From NCBI GenBank assembly GCA_030648835.1, contig JAUSGT010000001.1:133010-197009 (forward strand): a stretch of 64,000 nt of DNA, written 5' to 3'. Below, piece after piece: positions 5,878 through 54,259 of this stretch. How positions within the stretch are numbered: position 1 is the first letter of the stretch; every line of letters begins with the position of its first letter. This DNA is from Candidatus Moraniibacteriota bacterium (lineage in GTDB: Bacteria; Patescibacteriota; Minisyncoccia; Moranbacterales; UBA1568). The notes below the pieces were generated by a model that was given only the letters and a program-made list of their open reading frames with translations, was not told where the DNA came from and searched no databases. The position numbers and the translations under genes were made by a program.

Positions 5878-6008
5878 TATGCCCGGTAGTGAAACTTCGA
5901 CTGGGTATTCGTGTGAAATCAAACAATAGCAAGGGGTGTCAAAAATAAACATTAACTTAGACTTCCGCAGCATATAAAAAAGTTGTCGAAGTTCTACTAC
6001 CGGGTATG
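5878..6008 (+). mobile_element. Start-codon-associated inverted-repeat element, copy 1 (type A)
   Basis: TATG-CCCGGTAGTGAAACTTCGAC...GTCGAAGTTCTACTACCGGG-TATG; 123-bp core; ends on the yjbQ ATG. Confidence 0.8.
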
Positions 6009-6446
6009 AAAATTCACAAGGAGAGAATCGATCTCGAGAGCAAGACGCAGATCGAGTTTATGGATATCACGGACCGGGTGCAGGAAATCGTCGATCGTTC
6101 CGGTATTCGTGAAGGGCAGGCGCTCATTTATGTGCCACATACGACGATGGGCGTCGCCATCAACCACAACGAATCGATGCTCATTCAGGATTTTATGCGC
6201 ATTTTGTACAAAATGGTGCCGGTGGACGAGCACTATTCCCATGATCTTTTCGAATTGAGGCGTGCGTCCGGTTCCGACGGGCGGAGCAACGGCCACTCGC
6301 ATTGCAAAGCCATCCTTTTGGGCAACAGTGAAACGATCCCCGTAGAAAAGGGCAAGCTTCTTCTGACGGAGCGGCAGAATATCTTCGCCGTAGAATTCGA
6401 CGGTTCCCGCAAGCGTGATGTGTTTATTCAGGTAATCGGATTGTAA
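6006..6446 (+). CDS. yjbQ: YjbQ/UPF0047 family protein
   Basis: HTT..INHNE, NGHSHCK, EFDG.RKR motifs. Confidence 0.85.
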   Translation: MKIHKERIDLESKTQIEFMDITDRVQEIVDRSGIREGQALIYVPHTTMGVAINHNESMLIQDFMRILYKMVPVDEHYSHDLFELRRASGSDGRSNGHSHCKAILLGNSETIPVEKGKLLLTERQNIFAVEFDGSRKRDVFIQVIGL

Positions 6447-6461
6447 ATAATATTTCTTCCT

Positions 6462-6594
6462 TATGCCCGGCAGTGAAACTTCGACCGGGCATTTATAAAT
6501 ATCCGATAAGAGCGGGAATACTGCGAGGATAAGTATTAAATCCGAACTTCCAGGATTTCTACGGAAATTGTCGAAGTTCTACTGACCGGGTATG
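6462..6594 (+). mobile_element. Start-codon-associated inverted-repeat element, copy 2 (type A)
   Basis: TATG-CCCGGCAGTGAAACTTCGAC...GTCGAAGTTCTACTGACCGGG-TATG; 125-bp core; ends on the pcm ATG. Confidence 0.8.
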
Positions 6595-7218
6595 GGTAGC
6601 GGGCTTGTCGAACTGCTTATTCGTAATGGGTATCTGAAATCGGAGGCAATCATTCGGGCATTCAATGAGATAACGCGGGCGGAATTTGTCCCACCGGAGT
6701 TTGAAGAGCAGGCGGAAGCCGATGTTCCTCTCCCTATCGGCTTTGGTCAGACGATATCCCAGCCGACAACGGTGGCGATTATGTTCGAGCTTCTTGACCC
6801 GCGACCGGGACAAAAAGTCCTCGATATCGGGAGCGGTTCCGGCTGGACAAGCGCGCTTCTGGGGAATATCGTCGGCGTAGGGGGCAGGGTAGCGGCTGTC
6901 GAGTTGCTTCCGGAGCTTCACACAATGACCAAATGCAATGTGGAGAAATTCGGTTTGGTGAGCGCCGGTATCGTAGAATGTGTCTTGGGTGACGGCAATC
7001 TGGGGTATGAGCCGTTCAAGCCGTACGACCGGATCCTTGTTTCTGCCGCGGCCGATGAAATTCCTCAGGCATTCAAGAAACAGCTCGCTGTCGGAGGGAA
7101 AATAGTGATTCCCGTTCACAACCATCTGGTGTATCTCGAAAAGCGCGGGGAGGACGATTACTACAAGGAAGAGTTTGCGGGATTTGTTTTTGTTCCTTTG
7201 GTTCAGAAATCATTTTAA
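6592..7218 (+). CDS. pcm: Protein-L-isoaspartate O-methyltransferase
   Basis: LPIGFGQTISQP, VLDIGSGSGW, PYDRILVSAAA, FVFVPL. Confidence 0.93.
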   Translation: MGSGLVELLIRNGYLKSEAIIRAFNEITRAEFVPPEFEEQAEADVPLPIGFGQTISQPTTVAIMFELLDPRPGQKVLDIGSGSGWTSALLGNIVGVGGRVAAVELLPELHTMTKCNVEKFGLVSAGIVECVLGDGNLGYEPFKPYDRILVSAAADEIPQAFKKQLAVGGKIVIPVHNHLVYLEKRGEDDYYKEEFAGFVFVPLVQKSF

Positions 7219-7228
7219 ATTCATTTTT

Positions 7229-8242
7229 GTGCGCATATTTTTATTTATTGCTCTGCTTTTTTCCACACTCACCTTTGGAGGGTTTTTTTATCTTTCGTAT
7301 GCGGCGCAGCACGCGAGCGGTGGCAATAGTCAAGTACAGCGTTTCGAGGTGAAACAGGGAGAGGGAATGTTCAGTCTGGGGGAACGTCTGGAGGCGGCCG
7401 GATTGATTTCTTCACGCTATGTGTTTCTGTGGCATCTCGTTCGCGTCGAAAAAACTCACAATCTCGTCGCCGGGACATACAGTTTGAGTGGCGAGATGTC
7501 TGTGGCGGGTATAGCCTTGGTAATCACGGAAGGCAAGACTGTTTCACGGGACGTGCGGATCACCTTTCCGGAAGGGTGGAATAGCAAGAAAATGGCGGAG
7601 CGTTTGACGGCCAATGGTTTGCCGGGGGCGAGTTTTCTTAGGTTAGTAGAGAAACCGCAGCCGGAACTGAGGAATCAATTTGATTTCCTTTCCGCTCTGC
7701 CCATTGGAGCGACGCTTGAAGGTTTTCTTTTCCCAGACACTTACTTTTTTGACCCGCAAACGTCCGCGGAAGCGATTGTCGAAAAAATGTTGACGAATTT
7801 TGGAAAAAAGTTTGATTCAGCGCTTCGGATGGCGGCTGAGAAGCAGAAACGCAGTCTCTTTGCTACGGTGACGCTTGCCAGTATTGTGGAGAATGAGGTG
7901 AAAACCGAGACCGATCGGAAAATAGTGGCTGATATTTTTTCACGGCGTCTGGCTATTGGACAAGCTCTCCAGAGCTGTGCGACACTTCAATACATATTGG
8001 GGGTTGATAGAGTACAGTACTCATATGCTGAAACACAAACACCATCACCGTACAATACCTATATCAATCCCGGTCTGCCACCAGGCCCAATCGGCAATCC
8101 CGGTCTGATGACGCTCAATGCGACCATTTCCCCACAAGCCAATCCATACTTCTATTTTTTGAATGATCCAAAAACCGGCGAGACTATTTTTTCGATTACG
8201 TATGAGGAACATCTGAAAAATAAGAGCTTGCATGGATTATAA
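7229..8242 (+). CDS. mltG: Endolytic transglycosylase MltG
   Basis: N-terminal TM; ITFPEG, LEGFLFPDTY, LASIVENE, SPYNTY..PGLPPGPIGNPG. GTG start at 7229 is inferred. Confidence 0.92.
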   Translation: MRIFLFIALLFSTLTFGGFFYLSYAAQHASGGNSQVQRFEVKQGEGMFSLGERLEAAGLISSRYVFLWHLVRVEKTHNLVAGTYSLSGEMSVAGIALVITEGKTVSRDVRITFPEGWNSKKMAERLTANGLPGASFLRLVEKPQPELRNQFDFLSALPIGATLEGFLFPDTYFFDPQTSAEAIVEKMLTNFGKKFDSALRMAAEKQKRSLFATVTLASIVENEVKTETDRKIVADIFSRRLAIGQALQSCATLQYILGVDRVQYSYAETQTPSPYNTYINPGLPPGPIGNPGLMTLNATISPQANPYFYFLNDPKTGETIFSITYEEHLKNKSLHGL

Positions 8243-8329
8243 GAGAGGGTTTTGAAGGACGCAAAGAGGCCGCGGGGCCTCTTTTTTAGCACTCTCGCGG
8301 AAAACGGCATTTTGCGATAGAGTAAAGAT

Positions 8330-9436
8330 ATGAAAATAGCTTTGGTGCATGATTATTTGGTGCAGTACGGGGGAGCGGAGCGGGTGCTCGAAGCCTTCAC
8401 CGAGCTTTTTCCCTATGCGCCGATTTATACGCTCATCCATGATCGAGAGGCGATGCATGGGATATTTGAGGGCAAGCGTATCTATACGTCGTTTCTCCAG
8501 CATCTGCCGTTCTCGCACAAGCGCCATCGTTTTTTCCCGCCTCTTATGCCATTGGCTATCGAGCAGTTTGACTTTAGCACATACGATATCGTGTTGTCGG
8601 ATTCGTCGAGTTACGCCAAAGGCATCATCACGCGGCCGGAGACACTCCATATCTGTTATATGCATACGCCGATGCGTTACGCGTGGGATGATTGTCAGAA
8701 ATATACGCAAGATTTTGGGTTCCCGCAAATGATCAAGAAGCTGGTACCGTTTTTTATGAACCCGATTCGCCTGTGGGACAAGGCGAGCGCGGACCGAGTG
8801 GATGGCTTTCTCGCCAATTCGCAGTTTGTCGCGAAACGAATCAAGAAATATTACCGTCAGGCGGCCACGGTTATTCATCCACCGGTCAATATCGATCGTT
8901 TTGCTATTGCCGAGAAACCGGGCAACTATTTTCTTATGGTGGGCCGTCTCATCGCCTACAAGCGTCACGATATCGCGATCGAAGCATTCAATCGGTTGAA
9001 ATTGCCGCTCAAAATTATCGGTCGCGGACCGGAATTCGGTCGTTTGAAAAAAATGGCCGGACCGACGATTGAATTCTTGGGACGGGTGCCGGAAGAGGAT
9101 TTGCCGAAGTTTTATGCCGAGTGCCGCGGATTTGTTTTCCCGCAAGAAGAGGACTTCGGCATTGTGGCCATTGAAGCCATGGCGTCAGGGCGACCACTCA
9201 TCGCTTACCGAGGCGGTGACATCGTGGAACACCTGGAGGAAGGTACTATGGGTGTGTTTTTCGATACGCAGACGCCGGAAGCCATTGTGGAGGCCGTGAA
9301 ACATTTTTGTGAGCGTGAGTATGATTCGCACTATATTAGGAGCAAGGCCGTCCCTTTTGACAAAGAACGATTTAAGACTACAATAAAGGACTACATCACA
9401 AATGCTTTGGAAAAGCATTTAATGTCAAATACCTAA
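8330..9436 (+). CDS. Glycosyltransferase family 4
   Basis: ALVHDYL..GGAERV; EDFGIVAIEAMASGRP. Confidence 0.9.
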   Translation: MKIALVHDYLVQYGGAERVLEAFTELFPYAPIYTLIHDREAMHGIFEGKRIYTSFLQHLPFSHKRHRFFPPLMPLAIEQFDFSTYDIVLSDSSSYAKGIITRPETLHICYMHTPMRYAWDDCQKYTQDFGFPQMIKKLVPFFMNPIRLWDKASADRVDGFLANSQFVAKRIKKYYRQAATVIHPPVNIDRFAIAEKPGNYFLMVGRLIAYKRHDIAIEAFNRLKLPLKIIGRGPEFGRLKKMAGPTIEFLGRVPEEDLPKFYAECRGFVFPQEEDFGIVAIEAMASGRPLIAYRGGDIVEHLEEGTMGVFFDTQTPEAIVEAVKHFCEREYDSHYIRSKAVPFDKERFKTTIKDYITNALEKHLMSNT

Positions 9437-9530
9437 TACCAAATATCTAATAATTAATAACATGAATTTTTATTGAGGAATTTGATATTGAGATATTCAT
9501 TAGGTATTAGAAATTAGATATTAGGAATTA
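9427..9530. repeat. Inverted pair of degenerate heptamer arrays (AATAYCT / TAGATAT type)
   Basis: AATACCT AATACCA AATATCT ... TAGGTAT TAGAAAT TAGATAT TAGGAAT. Confidence 0.65.
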
Positions 9531-9552
9531 CAAATTCATATTTGTCATAATT

Positions 9553-10179
9553 ATGGAACTCAGGGATTACATCACTATATTCAAAAAACAGAAGAAAATA
9601 TTTTGGGCGATAGTGTTCCTCTCTGTTTTGGCGGCTACCGTTTGGCAGAAGAACCAGGAAGCGCAGTACCAAGCGACGTTGCTTCTCAATATTGGACGAA
9701 CGGGTGGAGAGGTTACCCAAGAGTATACTTATGACAGTTTTTATCGTTTGCAGGCGGATGAACGTTTTGCGGATACGGTCGTGCGCTGGCTCGGCTCTCC
9801 TCGGGTGGTAGAGGATATTTATGGCGCCGCAAACATAGATTTGGAGAAGAGAGGCATGCGTGATTTGAAAGGAATGTTCGGAGCGAAGCGTTTGTCTTCG
9901 CAAATGATCGAAGTGACCTATACGGATGTCAGCGACAAAACGCTCAAGAAAATTTCTGAAGCGGCGATTGTCACGCTCAATCGCTATACGGACAGTTTGA
10001 ATAAGGAGAATGACGAAACAAATTGGTTTACTGTGATCGGGAGTGATCCTATCGTCCGTGATGCCCATATTCCGCTTCCTCTCGCTTTGGTGATCGGGTT
10101 ACTCTTCGGGATATTTGTCGGGTTTTGGACAGTTTTGATAAGACACTATTTTCAGTTAACAAAGAACAATAAACAGTAA
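9553..10179 (+). CDS. Wzz/CpsC-like polysaccharide co-polymerase family protein
   Basis: MELRDYITIF N-terminus; two TM helices flanking an extracellular loop. Confidence 0.65.
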   Translation: MELRDYITIFKKQKKIFWAIVFLSVLAATVWQKNQEAQYQATLLLNIGRTGGEVTQEYTYDSFYRLQADERFADTVVRWLGSPRVVEDIYGAANIDLEKRGMRDLKGMFGAKRLSSQMIEVTYTDVSDKTLKKISEAAIVTLNRYTDSLNKENDETNWFTVIGSDPIVRDAHIPLPLALVIGLLFGIFVGFWTVLIRHYFQLTKNNKQ

Positions 10180-10240
10180 ATAAAAAAACTTGGCTTTTTT
10201 GGCGAAAACTGTTGATTGTTAACTGATGACTGTTTACTGG
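10153..10240. repeat. Inverted pair of degenerate heptamer arrays (AACAGTW / CTGTTRA type)
   Basis: CAGTTAACAAAGAACAATAAACAGTAA ... CTGTTGATTGTTAACTGATGACTGTTTACTG. Confidence 0.55.
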
Positions 10241-10242
10241 TT

Positions 10243-11406
10243 ATGCGCATAGGGATTGATATACGGTGTCTGGCGGAGGGGAAGCGCACTGGAGTGGAAG
10301 AATATACCTTGGCCCTTTTGGAAGGGCTTTTTCTGCGTGATACGGAGAATGAGTATGTGCTTTTTTTCAATGCTTGGCGCAAGACCCATTTGGATTTTGG
10401 CTGGGTGACCAAATATCCGAATGTTACCCTGAAAATCTTTCGTTTTCCCAATAAGCTTCTCAATCTCTCGCTTTGGTATCTGCGTTTCCCTAAATTGGAT
10501 AAGCTCCTCGGCGGTACGGATATTTTTTTTCTGCCGAATCTGAATTTCGCTTCAGTCTCGCGGAAGACCAGATTGGTAGTGACGGCGCATGATCTTTCGT
10601 TTGAATTGTTTCCGGAGACATTTTCTTTCAAGCGTCGGTTGTGGCATTTTTTCATCAACTTCCGGCGGTTGGCGCTTTCCGCCGACAAGGTGATCGCCAT
10701 TTCTCAGTCGACCAAAGATGATCTTATGGCGCAGTATGGTGTGTCGGGAGAAAAGATTATCGTTATCCAAAGCGGCATTGGAAAACAATTTCATGTGATG
10801 AGCCGAAACGACCAGGAACTCCTGCGAGTGAAGGAAAAGTACCATCTACCGTATAAATTTATCCTTTCACTCGCGACGTTTGAACCGCGCAAGAATATTC
10901 TGGCACTCATAAAAGCTTATGAGGCACTCTTGCGTCTCGGCCACACAGCTTTGGACAAGTACGCGCTGGTTATCGCCGGAACGCGTGGGTGGAAGAATGA
11001 GGAGGTGTTCGCTACCATTGCCCATTCACCGTATCGGGAAAAAATTCTCCTGCCCGGTTTCATCGCCGATGCCGATAAAGCAGCGCTCTACAATCTGGCG
11101 AGCGTATTTGTTTATCCGTCGCTCTACGAAGGCTTCGGTTTTCCACCGCTTGAGGCGATGGCTTGCGGGGTACCGGTCATCGTTTCTCATTCTTCATCGC
11201 TTCCGGAAATCGTCGGCAATGCCGGAGTTCTCATTGATCCGTATCAACCTGATGAGCTCTTGCAGGCGCTTCACCAGGTACTGACAGATCAGGAACTGAC
11301 CGATACTTTGCATAAAAAAAGCGAAACGCGCGCCACACTTTTTTCTTGGGAGAAAACGGTAGAGGAGACTCTCAGTGTTTTTCAGTCGTTAAAAGTGAAA
11401 AAATAG
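10243..11406 (+). CDS. Glycosyltransferase family 4
   Basis: MRIGIDIR..TGVEEY; EPRKN; PSLYEGFGFPPLEAMACG. Confidence 0.9.
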   Translation: MRIGIDIRCLAEGKRTGVEEYTLALLEGLFLRDTENEYVLFFNAWRKTHLDFGWVTKYPNVTLKIFRFPNKLLNLSLWYLRFPKLDKLLGGTDIFFLPNLNFASVSRKTRLVVTAHDLSFELFPETFSFKRRLWHFFINFRRLALSADKVIAISQSTKDDLMAQYGVSGEKIIVIQSGIGKQFHVMSRNDQELLRVKEKYHLPYKFILSLATFEPRKNILALIKAYEALLRLGHTALDKYALVIAGTRGWKNEEVFATIAHSPYREKILLPGFIADADKAALYNLASVFVYPSLYEGFGFPPLEAMACGVPVIVSHSSSLPEIVGNAGVLIDPYQPDELLQALHQVLTDQELTDTLHKKSETRATLFSWEKTVEETLSVFQSLKVKK

Positions 11407-11547
11407 GCGCCAGCCCGCCATATTTCTTGTTGAGAGGTGTAGGCGGGATTGACAGTTGCCTTTTCTCAGTCAAGAAAATCGGATATACTGTGGAGTGGGC
11501 AGGAAGCCCTTTTAAATACAAATATAAATAATCATTAAAGAAAGACT

Positions 11548-12948
11548 ATGTTGAAAAGAAGTACAAAAATGGGAACGGGATCGGCGCTGGTTATCGCTTT
11601 GCTGTCATTTGGCGCTTTTGTTGGGGCGGCGGTGCTTGTCACCAAAAATCAGTTGAATCTCACGGCGGTTTCGCTCGCCAATGACGGCGAGGACGGCGGT
11701 GGAGATAGCGGTGGAGATGAAGATAAGGACGAAGATAAGGATGACAGTAATGACTCTTCTTCAAAATCTGAAAAGGAGAAGGAAAAGAAGTCGGAAGAGG
11801 CTAAGAAGCAGGCTGAACGTGAGCGCGAGGATACCAAAAAGCAACTCGAGCGATCGAATAAGAGCTCTGACGATTCGGAGGATGATGAAAAAGAGAGTGA
11901 AGATATCAATGATGATAACGGAAATAAAGATGATTCGGCAGAGGAAGCCGATGAAATTGATGAGGCCGATGAAATCAATGACGACAATAATGGTATGTTC
12001 AAGGAACGTGCCAAGACATTGGAAAAATTACGAGAAGAGATAGCCAAGGCGAGGGAGAAAATCTTGGAAAAACAAGGGGAAGGAGTGGACGCCACTGCGG
12101 CGTTGGCGCGTTTGGCTTTGGCTGAAGCCGGACTTACTCAGGTAGGATCCTCGTTCGATGTGAATGATTTGGAAAAAGCCAAACTGCTTGCCAAACAAAT
12201 CAAGAAAGAGACTCATTTCACGGAAAAGGATCTGGAATTTTCCAAAAAAGTCGCTGAAGAAATGGCTAAAGTGGAAAAGCGCTTTGGGCAGGTAGAAAAG
12301 AAAATTGTCGAACTTGGAGCTTTGAGTGGCGATACCACAGATTTCAAATCCCAGCTCGCTTCACTACGTTCTGATTTTTCTGTTCTGAAAACTACGGTTG
12401 CGGCTGCTCCCGGAACGATAACTCGGGATATGGTGAAAGCTTTTGAAAAACGCGTGAAACGGTTGAAGAGTTTGGTTGAAAGCACCATTTTCGCTCTTGG
12501 TGGCACTGACGATGACGATCTGTTCGATGACCACAAGGATGATGCGGATGACCTTTTTGAGAATCTCAATGATGTGGCCGAGATTGAGGATGGCGATGAC
12601 AATGGCGTTTCCGGCAAGGTAAGAAAGATAGCGGCTGAGCATAAAGCGTCCACACAGGAAGTTGAGGACAGTTTGCAGGGTATCAAAGACCGCAGCGGTG
12701 TGACGAAAGTCCTTTTTGGGCCGAACTTCAACGCCCTGGATAGCTTGACGACCGAGGTTACCGCTATGGGTACCCGCGCAACCGCTCTCGAGTCGGCATC
12801 TACCCAGATCACTGATCCGGAGATCAAGCAGATTCTCGTGGATCAGGCAAAAGCTTTGCGGAGCGAAGTCACCAAGCTGCAGGCCTATATTGCCGCCGAA
12901 GACAATCAATTCAGTATCTTTGGAAAGTTTCTCTCGCTATTCCGCTGA
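11548..12948 (+). CDS. Membrane-anchored or secreted acidic coiled-coil protein
   Basis: N-terminal hydrophobic segment, D/E/K low-complexity tract, long helical region. Confidence 0.7.
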   Translation: MLKRSTKMGTGSALVIALLSFGAFVGAAVLVTKNQLNLTAVSLANDGEDGGGDSGGDEDKDEDKDDSNDSSSKSEKEKEKKSEEAKKQAEREREDTKKQLERSNKSSDDSEDDEKESEDINDDNGNKDDSAEEADEIDEADEINDDNNGMFKERAKTLEKLREEIAKAREKILEKQGEGVDATAALARLALAEAGLTQVGSSFDVNDLEKAKLLAKQIKKETHFTEKDLEFSKKVAEEMAKVEKRFGQVEKKIVELGALSGDTTDFKSQLASLRSDFSVLKTTVAAAPGTITRDMVKAFEKRVKRLKSLVESTIFALGGTDDDDLFDDHKDDADDLFENLNDVAEIEDGDDNGVSGKVRKIAAEHKASTQEVEDSLQGIKDRSGVTKVLFGPNFNALDSLTTEVTAMGTRATALESASTQITDPEIKQILVDQAKALRSEVTKLQAYIAAEDNQFSIFGKFLSLFR

Positions 12949-13007
12949 GAGAAGTATCTGTTGCGAGAAAGCCCTCATCTGCCGGTTGGCGGTGAGGGAT
13001 TTTCTTA

Positions 13008-13139
13008 TGTGCCCAGCAGTGAAACTTCGACCGAGTGCTCGTGTAGAATTGTAATTTGGAAGTGATATTATAAAAATAAGTATCTGATTTAAGTTTTTTT
13101 GGTTTTATGAAAATTGTCGAGGTTCTACTGCCGGGTGTG
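13008..13139 (+). mobile_element. Inverted-repeat element, copy 3 (type A, TGTG flanks)
   Basis: TGTG-CCCAGCAGTGAAACTTCGAC...GTCGAGGTTCTACTGCCGGG-TGTG; 124-bp core. Confidence 0.75.
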
Positions 13140-13159
13140 GTAGAATAGAAACAACTACT

Positions 13160-13915
13160 ATGTCCCAATATTACAACCCCAGGCGCAACAGAAATTTGTT
13201 CGATCCTCACTCGAAGGAGCCGTTTCGTTTGAGTCGTTCGCGGTTGGAGCTTTTTATGAACTGCCCCAGGTGTTTTTATCTGGATCGGCGTCTGGGTACG
13301 GATCGCCCGCCTGGCTTTCCCTTTTCGCTCAACTCGGCTGTGGATACGCTCCTCAAAAAAGAATTTGATATTCATCGCGCTTCTGGCACGCCACATCCTT
13401 TGATGCAAGCTTATGGTCTCGACGCGGTACCATTTCAGCACGAGAAGATGGAAGAGTGGAGGGATTCATTACGGCGCGGTATCACCTATCTCCACCCGAA
13501 GACAAATCTTTATTTCACAGGAGGAGTGGATGATGTGTGGGTGGATCCCAAGGGAGAACTGATCATCGTGGATTACAAAGCCACGGCCAAAGACGGTGAA
13601 GTGAATCTGGATGCCGAGTGGCAGGGTGGCTACAAACGTCAAATGGAAATGTATCAGTGGCTCTTTCGTAAAAATAATTTCAAAGTTTCCGATACCGGTT
13701 ATTTCGTCTACTGCAATGGTCAGACGGACCGCAAGGCTTTTGACGGCAAACTGGAATTTACCGTGAAACTGCTTCCCTATACGGGAAACGACGAATGGGT
13801 GGAGGGGATGCTTATTGCCGCTCACGACTGTTTGATGGGCGATGTTATTCCTGCCTCAAGCGCCAACTGTGATTACTGCGCCTACCGCCAAGCTACCTCG
13901 GAATTGGAGGGATAA
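13160..13915 (+). CDS. PD-(D/E)XK nuclease, Cas4/AddB-like
   Basis: LSRSRLELFMNCPRCF, GGVDD...IVDYK, QMEMY, C-terminal CDYC. Confidence 0.8.
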   Translation: MSQYYNPRRNRNLFDPHSKEPFRLSRSRLELFMNCPRCFYLDRRLGTDRPPGFPFSLNSAVDTLLKKEFDIHRASGTPHPLMQAYGLDAVPFQHEKMEEWRDSLRRGITYLHPKTNLYFTGGVDDVWVDPKGELIIVDYKATAKDGEVNLDAEWQGGYKRQMEMYQWLFRKNNFKVSDTGYFVYCNGQTDRKAFDGKLEFTVKLLPYTGNDEWVEGMLIAAHDCLMGDVIPASSANCDYCAYRQATSELEG

Positions 13916-13917
13916 AT

Positions 13918-14538
13918 ATGAAATTCTATCTTTCATCCTATAAAATTGGTAATCAGCCGGAAAAACTTTTGGCATTATTTTCGGATAACAAAAAGGTAGG
14001 CTATATACCGAATGCCTTAGATTTTACTGGGGCTGATCCGCAAAGAAGAAAAAGACACATCAAAACTGACATACAGAGTTTGATCGACAATGGATTCCAA
14101 GTGGAATTACTTGATCTGAAAGAATACTTCAATAAAAAAAACAACCTTCGAGAAAAACTCCAAAGCCTCGGAGGGGTCTTTATAAGTGGCGGGAATGTTT
14201 TTGTTCTTCGACAAGCGATGAGACTCTGTGATTTTGATACTATCCTAGAAGAATATAAAAATCGCGAGGACTTTGTTTATGCCGGTTACAGTGCCGCGGG
14301 GTGTGTTCTCTCTCCATCATTGAAAGCGTATGCGATCGTTGATGACGCGACTGATCATCCTTACGCCGAGCAAAGCGAAACGATATGGGAAGGCCTCAAT
14401 ATGATTGATTACGTTTTCTTACCACATTTTGACTCGAACCATCCTGAGTCCGAGGATGTTGCAAAAGAAATCCAGTATTGCATTCAAAACGGGATCCCGT
14501 ACAAAACGCTGAAAGATGGAGAGGCGATAATCATCTGA
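13918..14538 (+). CDS. Peptidase S51 (dipeptidase E-like)
   Basis: GGNVFVL, YAGYSAAG, LPH. Confidence 0.8.
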   Translation: MKFYLSSYKIGNQPEKLLALFSDNKKVGYIPNALDFTGADPQRRKRHIKTDIQSLIDNGFQVELLDLKEYFNKKNNLREKLQSLGGVFISGGNVFVLRQAMRLCDFDTILEEYKNREDFVYAGYSAAGCVLSPSLKAYAIVDDATDHPYAEQSETIWEGLNMIDYVFLPHFDSNHPESEDVAKEIQYCIQNGIPYKTLKDGEAIII

Positions 14539-21110: not shown

Positions 21111-21124
21111 TAATATAAAAATAT

Positions 21125-25640: not shown

Positions 25641-25772
25641 TATGCCCGGTAGTGAAACTTCGACTGGGTATTTGAAAAAGATTTGATAAGAGCGGGAACG
25701 TCGCGAGGATAAACATTGATTTGAATTTCCAAGGTTTTTACGGAAACTGTCGAAGTTCTACTACCGGGTATG
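25641..25772 (+). mobile_element. Start-codon-associated inverted-repeat element, copy 4 (type A)
   Basis: TATG-CCCGGTAGTGAAACTTCGAC...GTCGAAGTTCTACTACCGGG-TATG; 124-bp core; ends on the aspS ATG; interior homologous to copy 2. Confidence 0.8.
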
Positions 25773-29143: not shown

Positions 29144-29150
29144 GGAAAAT

Positions 29151-29257
29151 AATACCTAATTTCTAATATCTAATTCCTAATGAATGTTTCAATATCTCAC
29201 TTGAAAATTTAGAAATTAGACATTTTTTGGAAATTGGAAATTGGTAATTGGAAATTT
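29151..29257. repeat. Inverted pair of degenerate heptamer arrays
   Basis: AATACCT AATTTCT AATATCT AATTCCT ... TGGAAAT TGGAAAT TGGTAAT TGGAAAT. Confidence 0.7.
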
Positions 29258-30101: not shown

Positions 30102-30229
30102 TATGCCCGGTAGTAGAATTTCGACTGAGAGAAAAATACGATATTGAAACGAAAGATGTTTTAAAGAGTTATTATTAAAAATTTTATGCTGCATATAAAT
30201 ACATTGTCGAAATTTCACTACCGGGTATG
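30102..30229 (+). mobile_element. Start-codon-associated inverted-repeat element, copy 5 (type B)
   Basis: TATG-CCCGGTAGTAGAATTTCGAC...GTCGAAATTTCACTACCGGG-TATG; 120-bp core. Confidence 0.8.
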
Positions 30230-36494: not shown

Positions 36495-36570
36495 GGGTGC
36501 GTAGCTCAGTCGGTAGAGCAGTGGCCTTTTAAGCCAACGGTCGAGGGTTCGATTCCCCCCGCACCCACCA
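36495..36570 (+). tRNA. tRNA-Lys(TTT)
   Basis: Full cloverleaf GGGTGCG/CGCACCC; loop CTTTTAA; encoded CCA. Confidence 0.95.
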
Positions 36571-36624
36571 TAAAACTAGGACTCCACTTTTGGAGTCCTT
36601 ACTTTTTACAGAGAAGCTACAAGT

Positions 36625-36947
36625 GGGAATCGAAGGGCACGAGTAGGATGCGAGTAAGCGAGCATCCTGTGTGTAGTGCTCAGGCTCCGAGTCGGTCATC
36701 GACTCTGAGCTCAGACTCGAAGAGAGCGAGGAGGATTCCCCCCGCACCCACTATAGGATAACAATAGATAACAAGAACTCCCGAACGGGAAGTTTTTGCT
36801 TTATAAAGAATTGCGGGGAATCGAAGGGTGCGAGTAGAATGTGAGCAAGCGAACATTCTGTGTGTAGCACCCAGGCTCCGAGTCGGTCATCGACTCTGAG
36901 CTCAGACTCGAAGAGAGCGAGGAGGATTCCCCCCCCCGCACCCACCA
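36625..36947 (+). repeat. Two tandem ~126-bp repeats ending in the tRNA-Lys 3' end
   Basis: Units at 36625-36751 and 36816-36947, both ending GATTCCCCCCGCACCCAC. Confidence 0.85.
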
Positions 36948-37042
36948 AATAAGTACCTTTTCCGTTTCGGAGAGGGTACTTTGTTTTTCTTTCACACAGG
37001 TTACTTTTCTGCTATACTAAGGGCATAAATACATTATTTTTT

Positions 37043-44974: not shown

Positions 44975-45092
44975 AGCAGGCGGCAAGGCGCGGATTTTCT
45001 GGAACGTTCAGGGAATCCGCGCAGTTTTTTTAAATACAACAGACAATTTTTTTTTGAACGCTTACGAACGGGTGAGGTATAATGAACATACG

Positions 45093-45230
45093 TATGCCCG
45101 GTAGTAGAACTTCGACCGAGCATTGAAAGAAATTATGATGAAGCATAAGAGGGTTGTAAAATAAAAGTATATTTGGTTTTGATTACTGTAGTTTTTGTAT
45201 TAAATTGTCGAAGTTTCACTACCGGGTATG
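45093..45230 (+). mobile_element. Start-codon-associated inverted-repeat element, copy 6 (type B)
   Basis: TATG-CCCGGTAGTAGAACTTCGAC...GTCGAAGTTTCACTACCGGG-TATG; 130-bp core; TATAAT 9 nt upstream. Confidence 0.8.
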
Positions 45231-47893: not shown

Positions 47894-47958
47894 AGTTTTC
47901 GCTTCTGGTTCTTTGGTGAATTATCTTTGATGTTCAATCAACGCTGGGGAGAGGGAAC

Positions 47959-48423
47959 ATGAGTTTTAAGCTGATGAGCTGGTTTTTGGTGACGGCTGTT
48001 TCATTGATGGTTGCTGTATCATCGCAGGCGGCGGAGGATGATCAGGCACAGGATAACAGTTCGCTTGTCACATTCGTGCCCGTGAGAGAAAAAGCACGGG
48101 AATTGGTTATCGTGGAACTCGTCCGTCCGGATGGTCAAAACAAGAACTATACGGCTCTCGAGAAGAGCATACTTTCGAGCGGTTGGCGGACGGAAAAAAA
48201 TGGCGATTTTTTCGATATTCCCGGCAAGTGTACGATAGAAGCGCTTGCCAATGGTCAATACGCCGTTGATTGCTGGCTCATCCACCTTGAAGGGCGTGAT
48301 GTTTTACGGCAGGAAGTGAAAACTTCCGAAGAAGCCGTTACGACCATCAAGACCTTCTCGCGACTGCGGACGTATCGTCAGCCGCCAAAAAAAGCGAGGC
48401 CGATCAGGACCATATTGGTCTAG
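47959..48423 (+). CDS. Secreted hypothetical protein
   Basis: Signal peptide SQA; G-rich SD. Confidence 0.6.
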   Translation: MSFKLMSWFLVTAVSLMVAVSSQAAEDDQAQDNSSLVTFVPVREKARELVIVELVRPDGQNKNYTALEKSILSSGWRTEKNGDFFDIPGKCTIEALANGQYAVDCWLIHLEGRDVLRQEVKTSEEAVTTIKTFSRLRTYRQPPKKARPIRTILV

Positions 48424-48454
48424 CGGTTCAGTGAGCGGAAAGCGAAATAACAAG

Positions 48455-48488
48455 AACGGGTACCGGGAGAATTTCCTTGTACCCGTTT
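48455..48488. terminator. Bidirectional terminator
   Basis: AACGGGTAC...GTACCCGTTTT between convergent genes. Confidence 0.55.
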
Positions 48489-48517
48489 TACAATTTTTTT
48501 AAGATAAAATTTCCTCT

Positions 48518-50623
48518 TTACTTTTCCAGGCGGATGCGTGCGTCGAGGACGCGGAAGTTTTCAGCCTTCGGGAAAGACAACAGGGGATTCAGATCCAGTT
48601 CCGCGATTTCCGGGAAATCCTCTGCCAGCTGCGAAAGACGACCGATCATCGTGATAAGCGTTTCGAGATGGATGCCGTGTTGCCCGCGCGTCCCTTGGAG
48701 GAGAGGGAAAGCTTTGAGTTCGTGGAGCATTTCCTCTGCGTCTTCGCGGGTGAGGGGGGCGAAGCGGAGAGCAGTGTCTTTGAATGTTTCGACAAAAATA
48801 CCACCGAGACCCGCCAGAACGACAGTTCCCAGTCCGGGCTCTTTCTTCAATCCGAGGATGATTTCTTGGCCTCCTTCCTCCGCCATTTCAACGACGAGCG
48901 CGCCGAGGAGTCGCGCTTTGGGAACATGTTCTTTCACTTGCGCCATCAGTTTTTCGTAAGCCTCTCCCGCATCTTTTGGTTCGACATTGAGTATGACGCC
49001 GCCCACATCGGATTTATGGATGATATCCGGTGAAACGATTTTGAGCGCCACTTTTTTATCGATTTTTTCCGCGACAGAGGCGGCTTCTTCTTTGTTGTTC
49101 ACGAGAGAGGTCGCAAAAAATGGAAATCCGTAGGCGATGAGTATTTCACTGGCTTCTTTTTCTGTGAGGGCGGCGCGACCGGCATTTTTCGCGGCCTGTA
49201 TGATAGTGGCGGCTTTTTCATGGTCGGGGTTTTCCGGAGAAAAAGGTGTAGGAGAAGTTTCTTTGCGCCAATTGGCCACCTGAGCGAGCGCGGCGAGTGC
49301 TTCCGCAGCGGCTTCGGGATAGGTGACGGTAGTGATGGCGTTTTTTTGGAGCGCGGCGAGTCCATCTTGAAAAGAAACCTTCCCCGCGAAGACGGCGATG
49401 ATTGGTTTCGGTGTATGTTGTTTGATGGATACGATGGCTTCAGCCGTTTCTTTGGCTTGTGTCATCGTTTGTGGTGTCACGATGACGAGCAGCATATCGA
49501 TTTGGTCATCAGCCACGACAATTTCCATGGCAGCCCGGTAACGATCGGCCAGAGCGTCTCCGAGCACATCGATCGGGTTCAGAGCGCTGCCGGCTTTGGG
49601 CAAGATGGTTGTCAGTTTTTCCTGGGTTTCCTGGGACAGTGTGGCAACGCGCAAGCCGTTTGTCACGGCAGCGTCGGTGGCCAGGACTCCCAGACCCCCG
49701 GCGTTCGTCACGATGGCCAAGCGGTTGTTTTCCGGCAGTGAGTTATGCGAGAAAGCCGTGAGAAAGTGAGTAAGCTGTTCGAGATTTGCGGCGCGAACGA
49801 TGCGCGCCTGTTTGAAAAGGGCAGAATACGTAGCATCATTACCGGCCAGCGCTCCGGTATGCGAGCCGGAAGCGCTCTCGCCGGCCGTGGTGGTTCCTGA
49901 TTTGAGGACGATGATCGGCTTGGCTTCCGCGCGGGCGAGAATCTCTCGGCCGATTTTGATGAGCGTGTTACCGTCCGTCAATCCTTCGGTATAAAAACCG
50001 AGTGTTTTGACGTTTTCATCTTTTGCAAAATAGCGGAGCAATTCATTTTCACCGATCATGGTCTTGTTGCCGATAGAGACGAAGTGGGAAAAATCCAAAG
50101 TATCCACACTGAGATCGATGAGGGCGGTAGAGAGCGCTCCGCTTTGCGAAAAGAAAGCGATAGACCCGTCATGGGGGAGATGTTTGGCAAAAGAGGCGTT
50201 GAGTCCGATCTTCGGATGGAGAAATCCGAGACAATTGGGACCGAGTAGTGTGATGTCGAATTCTTGGGCGATAGTCAGAACAGTTTCCTCGAGCGCTTTT
50301 CCTGTGGCTCCGGTTTCTTTGAATCCGGAAGAAATGATGATGGCGGCGCGGATATTTTTTTCTCCCGCTTCACGCAAGACCGCGGGCACTATGTCTGCCG
50401 GGACGATGATGATAGCCAGATCGACAGCCTCCGGGATATCGGCAACGCGTTTGTAACAAGGCAGATCGAACAGTCTGTCGGTTTTCGGATTTACCGGATA
50501 CACTTTTCCCCTGTAACCGTTTTTCAGGAGATTCTCGGTCAGGGTGTATCCGACACTGCCGGCTTTGGTCGACGCGCCGATGACAGCGATGGACTGTGGC
50601 GAAAAGAGGGTATCGAGATGCAT
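48518..50623 (-). CDS. Acetate--CoA ligase (ADP-forming), fused alpha/beta
   Basis: IAVIGAS, LLGPNCLG, SHTGALAG, NPIDVLGD, KIVSPDIIHKSDVGGV, LDLNP; start at ATG 50623. Confidence 0.9.
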   Translation of the reverse strand: MHLDTLFSPQSIAVIGASTKAGSVGYTLTENLLKNGYRGKVYPVNPKTDRLFDLPCYKRVADIPEAVDLAIIIVPADIVPAVLREAGEKNIRAAIIISSGFKETGATGKALEETVLTIAQEFDITLLGPNCLGFLHPKIGLNASFAKHLPHDGSIAFFSQSGALSTALIDLSVDTLDFSHFVSIGNKTMIGENELLRYFAKDENVKTLGFYTEGLTDGNTLIKIGREILARAEAKPIIVLKSGTTTAGESASGSHTGALAGNDATYSALFKQARIVRAANLEQLTHFLTAFSHNSLPENNRLAIVTNAGGLGVLATDAAVTNGLRVATLSQETQEKLTTILPKAGSALNPIDVLGDALADRYRAAMEIVVADDQIDMLLVIVTPQTMTQAKETAEAIVSIKQHTPKPIIAVFAGKVSFQDGLAALQKNAITTVTYPEAAAEALAALAQVANWRKETSPTPFSPENPDHEKAATIIQAAKNAGRAALTEKEASEILIAYGFPFFATSLVNNKEEAASVAEKIDKKVALKIVSPDIIHKSDVGGVILNVEPKDAGEAYEKLMAQVKEHVPKARLLGALVVEMAEEGGQEIILGLKKEPGLGTVVLAGLGGIFVETFKDTALRFAPLTREDAEEMLHELKAFPLLQGTRGQHGIHLETLITMIGRLSQLAEDFPEIAELDLNPLLSFPKAENFRVLDARIRLEK

Positions 50624-50832
50624 AGATATCGAAGAAGAATTATGAATTACGAATCCCTGCCCGTCCGACAGGTGGGATAAATTGTGAACAAAAGAAAACC
50701 AAAAAACCAAAGGATTTTTACCGTGATTCCTAATTCCTGATTCTTTCCCCAATTGTAGCGGAAAACCGCGGTATTGACAAAAATGCGGAAATTTGCTAGT
50801 ATATGATGTTTAAGAATTAATTGAACGCACCT

Positions 50833-51789
50833 ATGCAAAGTCGTAATTTTTGGCTCTCTAGAGAGGTAATTCTTGGTTTGGCGTTCGGGCTCGTGCTCGT
50901 TGTGCCGGTTTTTGTTTTTGGCGGTTCCCAAACGCTCTATGTCGATAAAGATGCCAGTGGAAGCGAAAACGGTACTTCTTCCCATCCGTATCGTACTATT
51001 TCCAAGGCATTGAAAAATGCCGATGGAGGGACTGAAGTGAGAATCAAGAACGGAACCTATAAGGAAAATATCACCATTCCCAAAGGAGTGAAGGTATTGA
51101 GTGACAGCAAAAAGCGCGACAAAGTTGTTATCGAAAACGATAACAAAAATTTGCCGACGGTGACTATGAAACACAATACGGCTTTGAGCTATGTCACGGT
51201 AAAGGGTGGCCGGCATGGGGTGCGTATTCTCGAAGATGCCAAGGCGCATATTTTTGATGCGGTAATCAAAAAAAGCGATCGGGATGGCATTCATATCGAT
51301 GCGGCAACGCGTGACAAGAAACATCAAGTTATAATCGATAAGGTGAGGGTTACCAATAATGATCGAACCGGTATTTTTTCCGAGAAGCGTTTTATCGTGA
51401 TTATCAACAGCGATATTGTTTCCAACGGCAGCGATGGTATCAATTTGGCGGCGGGGACGAAGGCCTGGTTTGAAAATGACCGTTTCAACGACAACAAGGG
51501 GAGTGGCGCGAAACTGGTTCTGGACGGAGCTTCTATTTTCAGCAAGAAGAACAGTTTCCGTGACAACAAGCGCGAAGGCGTCGAAGTAAACGCGTCCGGG
51601 GCGGCTGGAACTATCGAATTGAAGAGAGCTTCTTTCGTGGGTAACGATCGTTATGGTGTCGCTCGCGTGGCCCGCACAGTGGCCGGGACTCGTATGTTCG
51701 GCAATCTTTCTTTCGGTACCGGTATCAACGCGAGTCGCTTCGAAGCGAATGCGTTCGGCAGTCTCTCATCTATCGTCAAAGGGTTTTAA
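50833..51789 (+). CDS. Secreted right-handed beta-helix (pectin-lyase-fold, DUF1565-like) protein
   Basis: YVD...GTSSHPYRTISKAL..GTYKE; repeated NxxxG beta-helix turns. Confidence 0.78.
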   Translation: MQSRNFWLSREVILGLAFGLVLVVPVFVFGGSQTLYVDKDASGSENGTSSHPYRTISKALKNADGGTEVRIKNGTYKENITIPKGVKVLSDSKKRDKVVIENDNKNLPTVTMKHNTALSYVTVKGGRHGVRILEDAKAHIFDAVIKKSDRDGIHIDAATRDKKHQVIIDKVRVTNNDRTGIFSEKRFIVIINSDIVSNGSDGINLAAGTKAWFENDRFNDNKGSGAKLVLDGASIFSKKNSFRDNKREGVEVNASGAAGTIELKRASFVGNDRYGVARVARTVAGTRMFGNLSFGTGINASRFEANAFGSLSSIVKGF

Positions 51790-51835
51790 GTATCTTGTTT
51801 AAAGGGAGAGAACTCCTAGGGGTGTACTATCAAAT

Positions 51836-53005
51836 ATGAAAATAGCTTTTATCGGACAAAAAGGGATTCCGGCACTTTCCGGCGGTGTTGAAAAACACGT
51901 CGAGAAATTGGCTGTGCATTTGGCGGCCCTGGGTCACGATATCACCGTGTATACCCGCCCGGCGTATACCGACAAGACCTTGAAAGAATATCAGGGAGTG
52001 AAATTGATTTCTTTGTCGAGTATCAGGACAAAACACTTGGACGCCGTCTCGCATACTTTTTTGGCGACGGCGCATGCCCTGTTCCAGAATTATGACGTGG
52101 TGCACTATCATTCCATCGGACCGAGCGTCTTCTCGATACTCCCGCGCATTTTTCGTGGCGGGATGCGAGTCGTGGCGACGTTTCATAGCCGTGATTATTT
52201 TCACAAGAAGTGGAATGTGTTCGCCCGGCTGTTTCTTCAGTTGGCCGAAAAGATCACGTGCACGGTTCCGGAAAAAACCATTGTCATCAGTGAAACGCTC
52301 AAACGCTATGCCGAGGAAAAATACGCGCGCAAGTTTTCCTTGGTTCCCAACGGAGCCGATGTCGCCTTTGAGCCCGATACGAACTTTTTGAATCAGTGGG
52401 GACTCAGACCGAAACGGTATATTTTGTCGGTCAGCCGTCTCATCGCGCACAAGGGCATTCACTATCTCATCAAGGCGTTCAACGAGCTGGAGAATATGAA
52501 CAAAATTCCCAATAATTTCAAATTGGTGATTGTCGGCGCGCCGACGTACACGAAAGAATATGAGACGTATTTGAAAGTGCTGGCGGAGGGACACAGCAAT
52601 ATCATTTTTGTCGGTGAACAGACCGGGAAAACATTGGAGGAATTGTTTTCTCACGCGTATCTTTTTGTGCAGCCGTCGGAAGACGAGGGATTGTCGCTGG
52701 CGCTGCTCGAAGCGATGGGACATGGTTTGATGCCGATTGTCAGCGATATTCCCGCGAATCGTGAGGCGATTGCCAACACCGGAGCGTTTTTCCCGAGCAA
52801 AGACGCCGTGAGTTTGGAAAAAGAATTGGCCTATTTTATCAATCGTCCCGAGGATGTGGCGGTTCTGGGAAAACTGGCACAGGAACGGGTGCAGGATCAT
52901 TACAGTTGGGACGCCATTGCTCGGCGAACATTTGAAGTGTATGAAGAAGCTTTGCATCAAAACAGTAGCGCTCGAGAACCATATGCCTCATATCGTACAA
53001 AATAA
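51836..53005 (+). CDS. Glycosyltransferase family 4
   Basis: IGQKGIP..GGVEKHV; EGLSLALLEAM. Confidence 0.9.
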   Translation: MKIAFIGQKGIPALSGGVEKHVEKLAVHLAALGHDITVYTRPAYTDKTLKEYQGVKLISLSSIRTKHLDAVSHTFLATAHALFQNYDVVHYHSIGPSVFSILPRIFRGGMRVVATFHSRDYFHKKWNVFARLFLQLAEKITCTVPEKTIVISETLKRYAEEKYARKFSLVPNGADVAFEPDTNFLNQWGLRPKRYILSVSRLIAHKGIHYLIKAFNELENMNKIPNNFKLVIVGAPTYTKEYETYLKVLAEGHSNIIFVGEQTGKTLEELFSHAYLFVQPSEDEGLSLALLEAMGHGLMPIVSDIPANREAIANTGAFFPSKDAVSLEKELAYFINRPEDVAVLGKLAQERVQDHYSWDAIARRTFEVYEEALHQNSSAREPYASYRTK

Positions 53006-54122
53006 ATTCGCTTTTCCGGCTTCCTGGACACGCGCCTTCGCGGTGACGCTGTTTTTTGTTACGCTTTCGGCGGGGCTGGTCTGGTTGGATTTTTTTCGCA
53101 GTTACAGCGCGGAAGTGACTGTTCTCGTTGTTTCTCGTCCGACTATCTCCCAAAGCGGCCAAGATGTGGCGGGAAATCTCGTGGCGCTCACGCGGACTCT
53201 TTCTTTTTATGATCGGGTGCTTGTCGACAATGATCTCATTGACGATCCTTTTGACGGATATGCTCCGGATAAACGCAAAGAATTTTGGAACGATACGGTT
53301 ACCGTGAAAAAGTTGGACGGCGGCAGCGTACTTGGAGTGCGGGCGGTTGGAAACACGCCGGAAGAAGCGACCCTGCTCGCTGCCCAGACAGCTCAGACGC
53401 TTTTTTCTGTCGCGGGTCTTTATTACAACGTGAAGACGGATATCGATCTTCGGATCATCGATGGACCGCTTCTCCGCTATGTCCTGGTGAAACCGTTTCT
53501 TTTTGGCGGAGTGAGTCTCCTCAGCGGATTTTTTGTTACGGCGCTTTTCTTCTTTCTGTTGAACGCAATACCGGGATTCATCGTGGGGCGGAAAAGAGAA
53601 TTTTCTCTGGATGAAATTTTAGACGAACACGCTCTTGCGGAAAAATATGCCGTACCGGAAAAGGCGTATCCGGAATTTTCTCTTGGTGAAACGGTGCCTT
53701 GGATCGACCCCAGGAAGTTTATTCCCGCCAAGCCCAAGACGCTTTCCTTTGAGAATATGGTACAGGAAGTGGAAAAAAGAACATCTTCCGGCGGTATGCG
53801 CGCTCCGGCGCCGGTGAATTTGCCGACCGCTCCGAGTGATATGGAACTTCCCGTCATGGATGAAGCGGAACTGCCTTTTGAATTTGAAACTCCGGTGGAG
53901 GAACCGGAAGCCTTCTTTTCATCCATACAAGGAGAGCCGCTCGGTTTTCCTGTCCGAGGTGAGCATTCGATCGCGCCGAATACGGAAACGCCGGATCAGG
54001 ATGAATCCATTTCGTCCGAACGAGAACGAGGTGAGCCAGCTTCCGCTAAGCTTCAGTCTGGTGAACCGACAGCCGACGAATACAAACGTCGTTTGAACGA
54101 ACTTTTGTCCGGAAGCGATTAG
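52983..54122 (+). CDS. Wzz-like protein with acidic, Pro-rich cytoplasmic tail
   Basis: Two TM helices, IIDGP before TM2, disordered tail ending EYKRRLNELL. Confidence 0.6.
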   Translation: MPHIVQNKFAFPASWTRAFAVTLFFVTLSAGLVWLDFFRSYSAEVTVLVVSRPTISQSGQDVAGNLVALTRTLSFYDRVLVDNDLIDDPFDGYAPDKRKEFWNDTVTVKKLDGGSVLGVRAVGNTPEEATLLAAQTAQTLFSVAGLYYNVKTDIDLRIIDGPLLRYVLVKPFLFGGVSLLSGFFVTALFFFLLNAIPGFIVGRKREFSLDEILDEHALAEKYAVPEKAYPEFSLGETVPWIDPRKFIPAKPKTLSFENMVQEVEKRTSSGGMRAPAPVNLPTAPSDMELPVMDEAELPFEFETPVEEPEAFFSSIQGEPLGFPVRGEHSIAPNTETPDQDESISSERERGEPASAKLQSGEPTADEYKRRLNELLSGSD

Positions 54123-54124
54123 GT

Positions 54125-54259
54125 TATGCCCGGTAGTAGAACTTCGATCAAATATTGAAACGAAGTTTTTTAAACCGAAGCCTTGGTAATAAAGTAACAT
54201 TTGATGCACAGAGATAGTTCACATAATGAAAGACTATCGAAGTTTCACTACCGGGTATG
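54125..54259 (+). mobile_element. Start-codon-associated inverted-repeat element, copy 7 (type B)
   Basis: TATG-CCCGGTAGTAGAACTTCGAT...ATCGAAGTTTCACTACCGGG-TATG; 127-bp core. Confidence 0.8.

Follow-up and report, generated by a model that had tools for sequence, protein, structure and literature searches.

We focused on a family of short inverted-repeat elements in the genome of a Candidatus Moraniibacteriota bacterium (G000; assembly GCA_030648835.1, 1.01 Mb in four contigs, 99.84% complete), seven copies of which lie in a 64,000-nucleotide stretch of contig JAUSGT010000001.1 (positions 133,010 to 197,009; referred to as the window here). Judged by their orthologous sites, the seven repeats are insertions with a target-derived duplication of 3 to 4 bp, and six of them sit on the start codon of a gene. 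In other genomes, the same ends enclose a single small gene for a GIY-YIG nuclease, and this nuclease of a ∼310-bp Patescibacteria element is probably the mover of both the full-length and the gene-less forms. The element is real and mobile and apparently undescribed in print; a search of the open literature found no description of it, with subscription journals, ISfinder, and supplements lying outside the search. Other G numbers denote related genomes, and L numbers denote loci.

The repeats are insertions with a target-derived duplication

The original prediction, made from the letters of the window, had listed seven copies with TATG on both sides, and a direct check of the sequence found all seven (7/7) at the same coordinates (Table 1). 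A 19-nt arm pattern had 12 exact matches in the window, compared with none in 200 shuffles. The short elements have 120- to 133-bp cores with 20-bp arms as terminal inverted repeats and no open reading frame (ORF), and each window copy forms a long stem when the plus strand is folded (z scores from −3.4 to −5.7). TATG flanks six copies, whereas copy 3, at position 13008, has TGTG. The second TATG is the start of all six genes that had been named, with the qualification that mreD was labeled by its place after mreC; the ORF at 30227 has no Pfam hit. The second arm had been described as the inverse of the first, but the arms are never perfect inverses (GA versus AG at positions 10 and 11). Similarly, the claim that all copies face the way of the gene holds for the interiors but not for the ends, which have GA on the left in copies 1 to 4 and AG on the left in copies 5 to 7. 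The predicted association with ATGs extends beyond the window: a genome-wide arm search yielded 23 paired copies and, arranged in tandem next to a standard copy, a single variant-arm copy, and in 22 of the 23 the right-hand ATG opens an ORF of 141 to 854 amino acids, copy 3 being the lone exception. Identical 4-mers on both flanks were found in 19/23 copies.

We regard the copies as insertions because their orthologous sites are empty in genomes of the same genus. Such sites were found for all seven copies, as one would look for in a mobile element, and at every window locus the element is absent from most orthologous sites of same-genus genomes. It was absent in 5/5 same-genus genomes at the trx-yjbQ site (copy 1), in 4/4 genomes with a readable junction at yjbQ-pcm (copy 2), in 3/3 relatives at copy 3, in 2/2 genomes with a readable junction at wzy (copy 6), and in 5/5 relatives at the DUF4012 gene (copy 7), where G041 has one TATG two bases past the upstream stop, matching the expected empty site. 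At aspS (copy 4), 0/25 readable loci held a complete copy and 2 held a right-arm-only remnant (4/29 loci were unreadable), while the mreC-mreD junction (copy 5) was empty in 24 of 29 relatives, filled in 3 (G041, G046, and G054), and occupied by a short remnant or other sequence in 2. In the orthologues of copy 3, one TATG (G054 and G004) or one TGT (G041) stands directly before the same TAGAAT, which places this copy inside an extended −10 promoter-like motif. This motif (TG-n-TAGAAT) lies 20 nt upstream of a PD-(D/E)XK gene, whose ATG is at 13160; from consensus and conservation, the TAGAAT at 13141 is a putative promoter hexamer. Subtracting the inserts leaves ordinary junctions, in agreement with the original prediction: aspS then starts 3 nt past the stop of the upstream response-regulator gene, and TATAAT lies 9 nt ahead of the left TATG of copy 6.

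The base preceding the ATG is identical on both flanks in 128/138 cases (T/T in 123, A/A in 3, and C/C in 2). Since the equal bases include A/A and C/C, the duplication derives from the target, and a duplicated 4-mer that tracks its target points to a staggered cut rather than to a crossover core carried by the element, a candidate disfavored by the A/A and C/C flanks beside T/T. Support for the proposed non-autonomous element, with its 4-bp target duplication at start codons, thus comes from the empty sites, from the target-following duplication, and from the longer form described below. Contigs of two DNA runs, which drop rare variants, showed no precise excision joint among 15 of 50 joints.

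The same ends enclose a GIY-YIG nuclease gene

A longer copy with the same ends and an enzyme gene, another expectation for a mobile element, does exist. In 72 paired full-length elements of 294 to 390 bp (median, 312; one locus is counted twice, and 68 of the sites are distinct), the ends surround a single GIY-YIG gene of 85 to 95 amino acids, and elements of this length are too short for a second gene. Examples are L041 (317 bp, 89 amino acids) and L025 (305 bp); L200 is a full-length member from the genus of G000, with a terminal arm sequence in common with the G000 copies. When the nuclease protein alone was used as the query, 110 loci were retrieved, 109 of which were scored for arms. This arm type lies directly upstream in at least 90 of the 109, including 12/12 at ≥70% identity, and several of the loci scored as “none” display arms by eye. 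An exact 3- to 5-bp duplication was present at 58/68 distinct full-length sites. The full-length set was not chosen for ATG, and 52/68 sites adjoin an ATG with an ORF that is at least 60 amino acids long or open to the end of the locus; among the others, the ORF at the ATG is short or unclear in 5, the TTGA of a TTGACA box is duplicated in 2, and 9 are of other kinds.

Among the catalytic GIY-YIG residues of the nuclease, Y6, Y18, G20, H32, and E64 are invariant in 71/71 sequences, and R28 is conserved in 70/71. Internal stops were found in 2/71 ORFs, and the pooled pN/pS of 0.17 over 14 independent pairs indicates purifying selection. End sequences track nuclease clades: other clades bear other arm types, and the five TTAAA-type loci form one branch. 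An NCBIfam search returned no specific family. According to its structure model (pLDDT 92.8), the nuclease is Slx1-like in fold, with At-HIGLE (Z 8.1, root mean square deviation 3.1, 83 residues aligned) and Slx1 (Z 7.7, root mean square deviation 4.1, 87 residues aligned) tied as the nearest folds. A homodimer is predicted with a score of 0.83, versus 0.00 for the best control, and the runs agree in 100% of contacts at pLDDT ≥90; this score, a mark attained by 20/30 solved homodimers and 1/23 monomers, supports binding.

One alternative is that GIY-YIG is cargo or a helper and that the mover acts in trans, be it a tyrosine recombinase of the host, a transposase of the Y1/HUH type, or an insertion sequence (IS) that has escaped notice. 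Against it, no ORF other than the nuclease lies between the ends in 72 elements, the nuclease is under purifying selection, and the arm type follows the nuclease clade. This alternative would account for the presence of 23 short copies in G000, where no full-length copy was found, and it can draw on the two tyrosine recombinases and the one Y1 transposase gene of this genome, as well as on the fact that, to our knowledge, GIY-YIG enzymes have no known joining chemistry. However, the palindrome around the Y1 gene is a different one, the duplicated 4-mer tracks its target in the manner of a staggered cut, and profile searches found no IS1380 (PF13701), DDE_Tnp_1 (PF01609), or IS110 (PF01548) transposase in G000. 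Overall, we consider a mover in trans unlikely. The Y1 transposase and the two tyrosine recombinases of G000 were also examined as individual candidates, and none had a link to the arms.

The GA/AG bulge changes sides between elements

In 208/210 elements, one arm carries GA at positions 10 and 11 and its partner carries AG, under an arm-pairing filter that accepted any purines at these positions. Other arm positions vary jointly in both arms, which is partly forced by the filter; position 20, which lies outside the filter, pairs in 188/196. Of the G000 copies, 6 are of the GA-left type, 16 are of the AG-left type, and 1 is irregular, and there are no like-for-like pairs among the 72 full-length elements. 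Arm type switches at least 7 times on the nuclease tree, compared with a shuffled mean of 21. The nuclease gene runs in the direction of the host gene in both arm types, an extra arm base falls on the right side in 13/14 cases covering both types, and the interiors of opposite-type G000 copies reach higher matches when aligned in the same direction (up to 0.64) than when one is reversed (at most 0.55). A change of four bases for which intermediates are almost lacking argues for a reciprocal exchange between the arms, which is the expected product of cruciform resolution and fits a dimeric Slx1-like enzyme. The swap of the GA/AG sides with the interior direction kept suggests a cruciform step.

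A small hairpin adjoins the AG arm, at the end nearer the gene, in L001, L013, and L213, and in L002 and L035 the same hairpin adjoins the GA arm, at the end away from the gene, indicating that interiors have been inverted at times. Occasional inversion of the interior, together with inverted arms and a fixed bulge, would be in line with site-specific invertible promoters or attC-like recombination sites that do not transpose. We give this explanation very little credence, however, since the opposite-type interiors of G000 match better unreversed, promoters are not enriched (see below), and invertible promoters are not characterized by empty sites, by target duplications, or by a long form that carries a nuclease.

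A model for movement by the nuclease

GIY-YIG nucleases are hydrolytic enzymes, and our model combines such an enzyme with host functions. The two element ends would pair as a hairpin or cruciform, in which the fixed GA/AG bulge would mark the substrate. Nicks at the base of the stem and a staggered cut at TATG would both be the work of a nuclease dimer; the join would then be completed by polymerase and ligase of the host, giving rise to the duplication. The four-way junction could then be resolved either way, so that the GA/AG patch would swap sides while the interior keeps its direction. This subfamily would prefer TATG, which is the whole visible initiation signal of the host, and the duplication would rebuild this signal so that the insert is tolerated; as a second part of docking, a further bias to real starts would remain. 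A more ambitious version seems to us evenly poised between right and wrong: a new class of transposon of ∼310 bp, in which an 89-residue Slx1-like dimer would be the transposase, flip the bulge via a cruciform, actively find starts and promoter boxes, rebuild the signal, and borrow the expression of essential genes.

Several observations weigh against the nuclease as the mover. We know of no GIY-YIG nuclease that carries out strand transfer, and the joining step is therefore assigned to the host by assumption. No full-length copy was found in G000, whose six small GIY-YIG genes all lack these arms, and G003, G004, G014, and G024 carry short copies with no nuclease match at E ≤ 1e−22. The short interiors of G000 have no clear similarity to full-length interiors, so that a putative origin of these copies by internal deletion lacks an interior match. 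The dimer score may stem from likeness to solved GIY-YIG dimers. Furthermore, only 15/57 full-length cases have a captured left ATG that is in frame with the nuclease and open as far as it, and the AUG is paired at the stem base, from which freeing it costs on average ∼19 kcal/mol (20 copies).

Among the small GIY-YIG genes of G000, one is SsnA-like and lies between true NTS repeats, and two lie among tRNA-like repeats. Two genes of this kind (C1:136364-136573 and C4:143528-143725) are each located between a tRNA-like repeat and a tRNA gene, and, of the G000 proteins, that of the former is most closely related to the element nuclease (55% over 69 amino acids).

TATG is the start signal of the host

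A T precedes 598/866 called starts in G000 (69%), compared with 31% of internal Met codons. A Shine-Dalgarno-like motif is present at 89/866 starts (10%), and the upstream DNA is A-rich. TATG is therefore the native start context and start signal of this host, which amounts to a strong U-AUG signal for initiation, and its duplication leaves the signal of the gene intact. The idea that T-ATG starts are scars of old elements was rejected, as GGG precedes the T in only 22/598 cases, which is about the number of elements. The registers of the duplication vary (TATG, ATG, ATGA, and TGNA), and every register found at starts keeps the start intact; elements ending in TCC duplicate TGNA, and their last A restores the ATG. 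In full-length elements, an internal guide complementary to the target junction gave only a weak signal.

Target choice tracks the subfamily. An arm-variant subfamily (L078, L080, and L122) of 70 to 137 bp with different inner arms duplicates TTGA/TCAA, with several members at TTGAC −35-like boxes. The full-length elements of L277 and L282 are located at TTTA or TTCA inside an apparent type IV pilin motif (G-F-T-L), a target that is not a start codon.

The original prediction held that the element targets start codons, and this claim stands in part: starts are enriched beyond the TATG context, but much of the bias comes from that context and from selection against coding insertions, and subfamilies hit TTGA(C). 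Insertion may in fact occur at any TATG, with selection keeping the copies that rebuild a start or a promoter box, an explanation that concerns targeting only and is compatible with the nuclease as the mover. TATG being the context of 69% of starts, 47% of the TATG sites outside coding sequence are starts, or 52% on the locally dominant strand; moreover, the registers seen at starts vary and yet leave the start intact, and at copy 3 and the TTGA(C) sites it is a promoter box that is rebuilt. On the other hand, 22/23 copies at starts exceeds both 0.47 (p 8e−7) and 0.52 (p 7e−6, majority strand only), an excess that is overstated because the null models depend on crude ORF calls and treat promoters and RNA genes as if they were free intergenic sequence. 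In addition, 14/23 insertion sites are at starts within 25 nt after an upstream stop, compared with 167/633 in the background. We therefore judge insertion at any TATG to be somewhat less probable than its opposite, and recognition of starts as such may act beyond TATG preference and selection. Targeting of leaderless starts was rejected, since a −10 box 4 to 10 nt upstream was found at only 5/23 sites (51/633 in the background), whereas 14/23 closely follow a stop.

Little support for a role of the stem as an RNA module

As an alternative to mobility, the original prediction had offered a domesticated cis-regulatory module, for which we found little support, given the patchy occupancy in close relatives and the lack of promoter enrichment: 110 non-redundant interiors showed no enrichment of −10, extended −10, or TTGAC, and the only raised 4-mer was TTGA, on the sense strand (59 versus 46 expected). 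Translational fusion or read-through was rejected as well, because the left ATG gives short ORFs about equally in three frames (15/57 open to the nuclease).

In its most specific form, this alternative states that the short copies are cis-acting RNA modules, either RNase III sites or translational switches, kept for the benefit of the host. The arms are conserved while the interiors have drifted to about 50% identity, but concerted copying during movement predicts this arm conservation equally. Tetraloop-like hairpins adjoin the arm in many copies, and an internal CGGG/TGGG motif varies jointly with the left end, to which it is complementary (table 18,12 / 3,19; p 0.001, with non-independent kin), and could divert the stem and free the AUG. 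RNase III is present in G000, and this enzyme cleaves Correia repeats in Neisseria, as described in a review (PMC10969869). Against these points, the sites are filled in few relatives, the downstream genes have no common function, and no −10 or −35 enrichment was found, so that we consider a domesticated RNA module improbable.

Copy number, tandem arrays, and range

Matches to the same ends come mostly from Patescibacteria, many of them titled Ca. Moranbacteria, and include a few lone-arm chance matches; some records with arm matches are titled Bdellovibrionales or Gammaproteobacteria (labels as given in the records). The strict paired pattern was found in 11/40 nearer relatives and in none of 400 other genomes sampled across the phylum, which shows that the exact subfamily is concentrated in one order. 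A search of viral contigs found neither an arm match nor a relative of the nuclease, and phage and plasmid collections contained no match to the L041 element.

Tandem arrays with a single joining TATG occur in L093, L130, L029, and L107. In L093 (3001-3429), at least four copies lie head-to-tail with single TATG joints, and two of the units are identical. The third element of L130 belongs with other ATG-docked inverted-repeat families flanked by ATGAAT. A variant-arm subfamily with a GTGGCACAA or GTGGGACAA center is found at G000 C1:30726-30845, L132, and L135, also on ATG, in one case in tandem with a standard copy.

Features of the window and other repeats

The coordinates of the seven copies and of the features next to them are collected in Table 1. 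At gathering scores, an Rfam search of the window matched two tRNAs only and none of the element copies.

Table 1. Element copies and adjoining features in the window
Feature	Position	Strand	Description
Element copy 1	5878..6008	+	TATG + 123-bp core + TATG; GA arm left, AG arm right
Copy 1 right ATG	6006	+	Start of UPF0047/YjbQ gene
Element copy 2	6462..6594	+	GA arm left; one extra base in right arm
Copy 2 right ATG	6592	+	Start of pcm (PCMT)
Element copy 3	13008..13139	+	TGTG duplication inside extended −10 promoter-like motif; GA left; off start codon
TAGAAT −10-like hexamer	13141..13146	+	Upstream TG restored by right duplication copy
Element copy 4	25641..25772	+	GA left; right ATG (25770) is aspS (AspRS) start
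Element copy 5	30102..30229	+	AG left; right ATG (30227) is start of ORF after mreC
Element copy 6	45093..45230	+	AG left; right ATG (45228) is Wzy_C/O-antigen ligase gene start
Element copy 7	54125..54259	+	AG left; right ATG (54257) is DUF4012 gene start

Additional repeats were observed in the window. Intergenic degenerate 7-bp units of the TAATATC/TAATACC type, in facing inverted blocks, lie at 9414-9543, 29150-29256, and 56467-56595. The region at 36551-36982, after the tRNA at 36495-36567, contains a pair of 119-bp copies that are 92% identical, and the tRNA 3′ end is present there three times; its units each hold a 28-bp palindrome, and the arrangement resembles repeated integration into a tRNA locus.

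Elsewhere in G000, a Y1 (RAYT-like) transposase gene (C2:11805-12506) has four CTTGGGAG-type palindromes of its own around and inside it. The SsnA-like gene (C2:11129-11529) has inverted NTS flanks, and SRM doublets are scattered over the genome (about 24 pattern matches). Other ATG-docked inverted-repeat families with ATGAAT on both sides are found at C1:340063-340155 and C4:27871-27972, with CCCGTTAGA-type and CCCGCAC-type ends, and GIY-YIG homologues with CCCGTTAGA or CCCTGTTAAA ends are present in L218 to L226.

Implications and comparison with known systems

If the nuclease is the mover, the full-length form would be a self-sufficient transposon of ∼310 bp with a new transposition chemistry from a purely hydrolytic nuclease, a novelty that depends on the presumed role of the enzyme. 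By themselves, the short copies would be a new MITE (miniature inverted-repeat transposable element) family. The element also illustrates how selfish DNA can survive in streamlined genomes that have hardly any spare DNA, by duplicating the minimal start signal of its host.

IS200/IS605 and RAYT/REPIN systems combine a tiny enzyme with hairpin recognition, a tetranucleotide target, and non-autonomous inverted-repeat doublets, and they use HUH chemistry and are not known to make a target duplication. Our element resembles them in its tiny enzyme, putative hairpin recognition, short tetranucleotide target, and non-autonomous inverted-repeat doublets, but it has a 3- to 4-bp duplication and a GIY-YIG gene. 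An identity with REPIN/RAYT was rejected, as the arms enclose GIY-YIG and the one Y1 gene of G000 has another palindrome. The GIY-YIG gene in 72 full-length elements also sets the family apart from the known IS families (DDE, DEDD/IS110, HUH/Y1, and serine).

The Ssn system (Chenal et al. 2025, PMC11893778) is alike in having a single-domain GIY-YIG protein of about 90 amino acids between its own inverted repeats; its authors compare NTS-ssnA-NTS to an insertion sequence and describe cutting of single-stranded DNA beside a hairpin, and they also discuss IS200/IS605 and RAYT/REPIN systems. Here, the two element ends would pair together, whereas each NTS is a hairpin of its own in the main text of that paper, which contains no occurrence of the word “duplication” and does not mention the phylum Patescibacteria. 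The published SRM pattern, which does find the repeats around the SsnA-like gene of G000, matched 0/210 elements, and in a quick tree of 88 columns the element nuclease stands apart from the NTS-flanked SsnA-like protein of G000, whose row is a long branch. On the basis of the SRM count and the different branch, the element nuclease is probably not an Ssn. If the nuclease is the mover, the idea in that paper of small GIY-YIG proteins and repeats as insertion sequences would become directly testable, with clear ends and duplications.

Slx1 and At-HIGLE, the best structural matches of the element nuclease, are structure-selective eukaryotic repair enzymes that have extra domains and do not belong to a mobile element. 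At-HIGLE, which is active as a homodimer, introduces two coordinated nicks into Holliday junctions and cruciforms, and it dimerizes via a C-terminal region that the element nuclease does not have (PMC9071465). In the same phylum, insertions with GIY-YIG ORFs in candidate phyla radiation (CPR) rRNA genes are sparse, unlike either intron class, and, as the authors put it, outside homing spread (PMC11270868). The text of that paper gives no description of ends, of duplications, or of start codons (“inverted repeat” and “start codon” each occur 0 times), and these insertions may be related to the element family.

Among MITEs, Correia elements have a TA target. The target of our family is TATG at start codons, and a fixed GA/AG mismatch that swaps sides is a further difference from MITEs. 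With MITEs such as Neisseria Correia and enterobacterial ERIC, the short elements share small size, lack of genes, inverted ends, a target duplication, scattered intergenic copies, and a transcribed hairpin that is a possible RNase III substrate. GIY-YIG, start codons, and Patescibacteria do not occur in the main text of a review of bacterial MITEs (PMC10969869). The short copies are ORF-less with inverted ends, a duplication, and empty sites, and a longer form with shared ends exists, a candidate parent whose gene encodes a GIY-YIG nuclease and not a DDE transposase. Overall, the family would work like a MITE together with its parent insertion sequence, the parent being one without a transposase of a known class.

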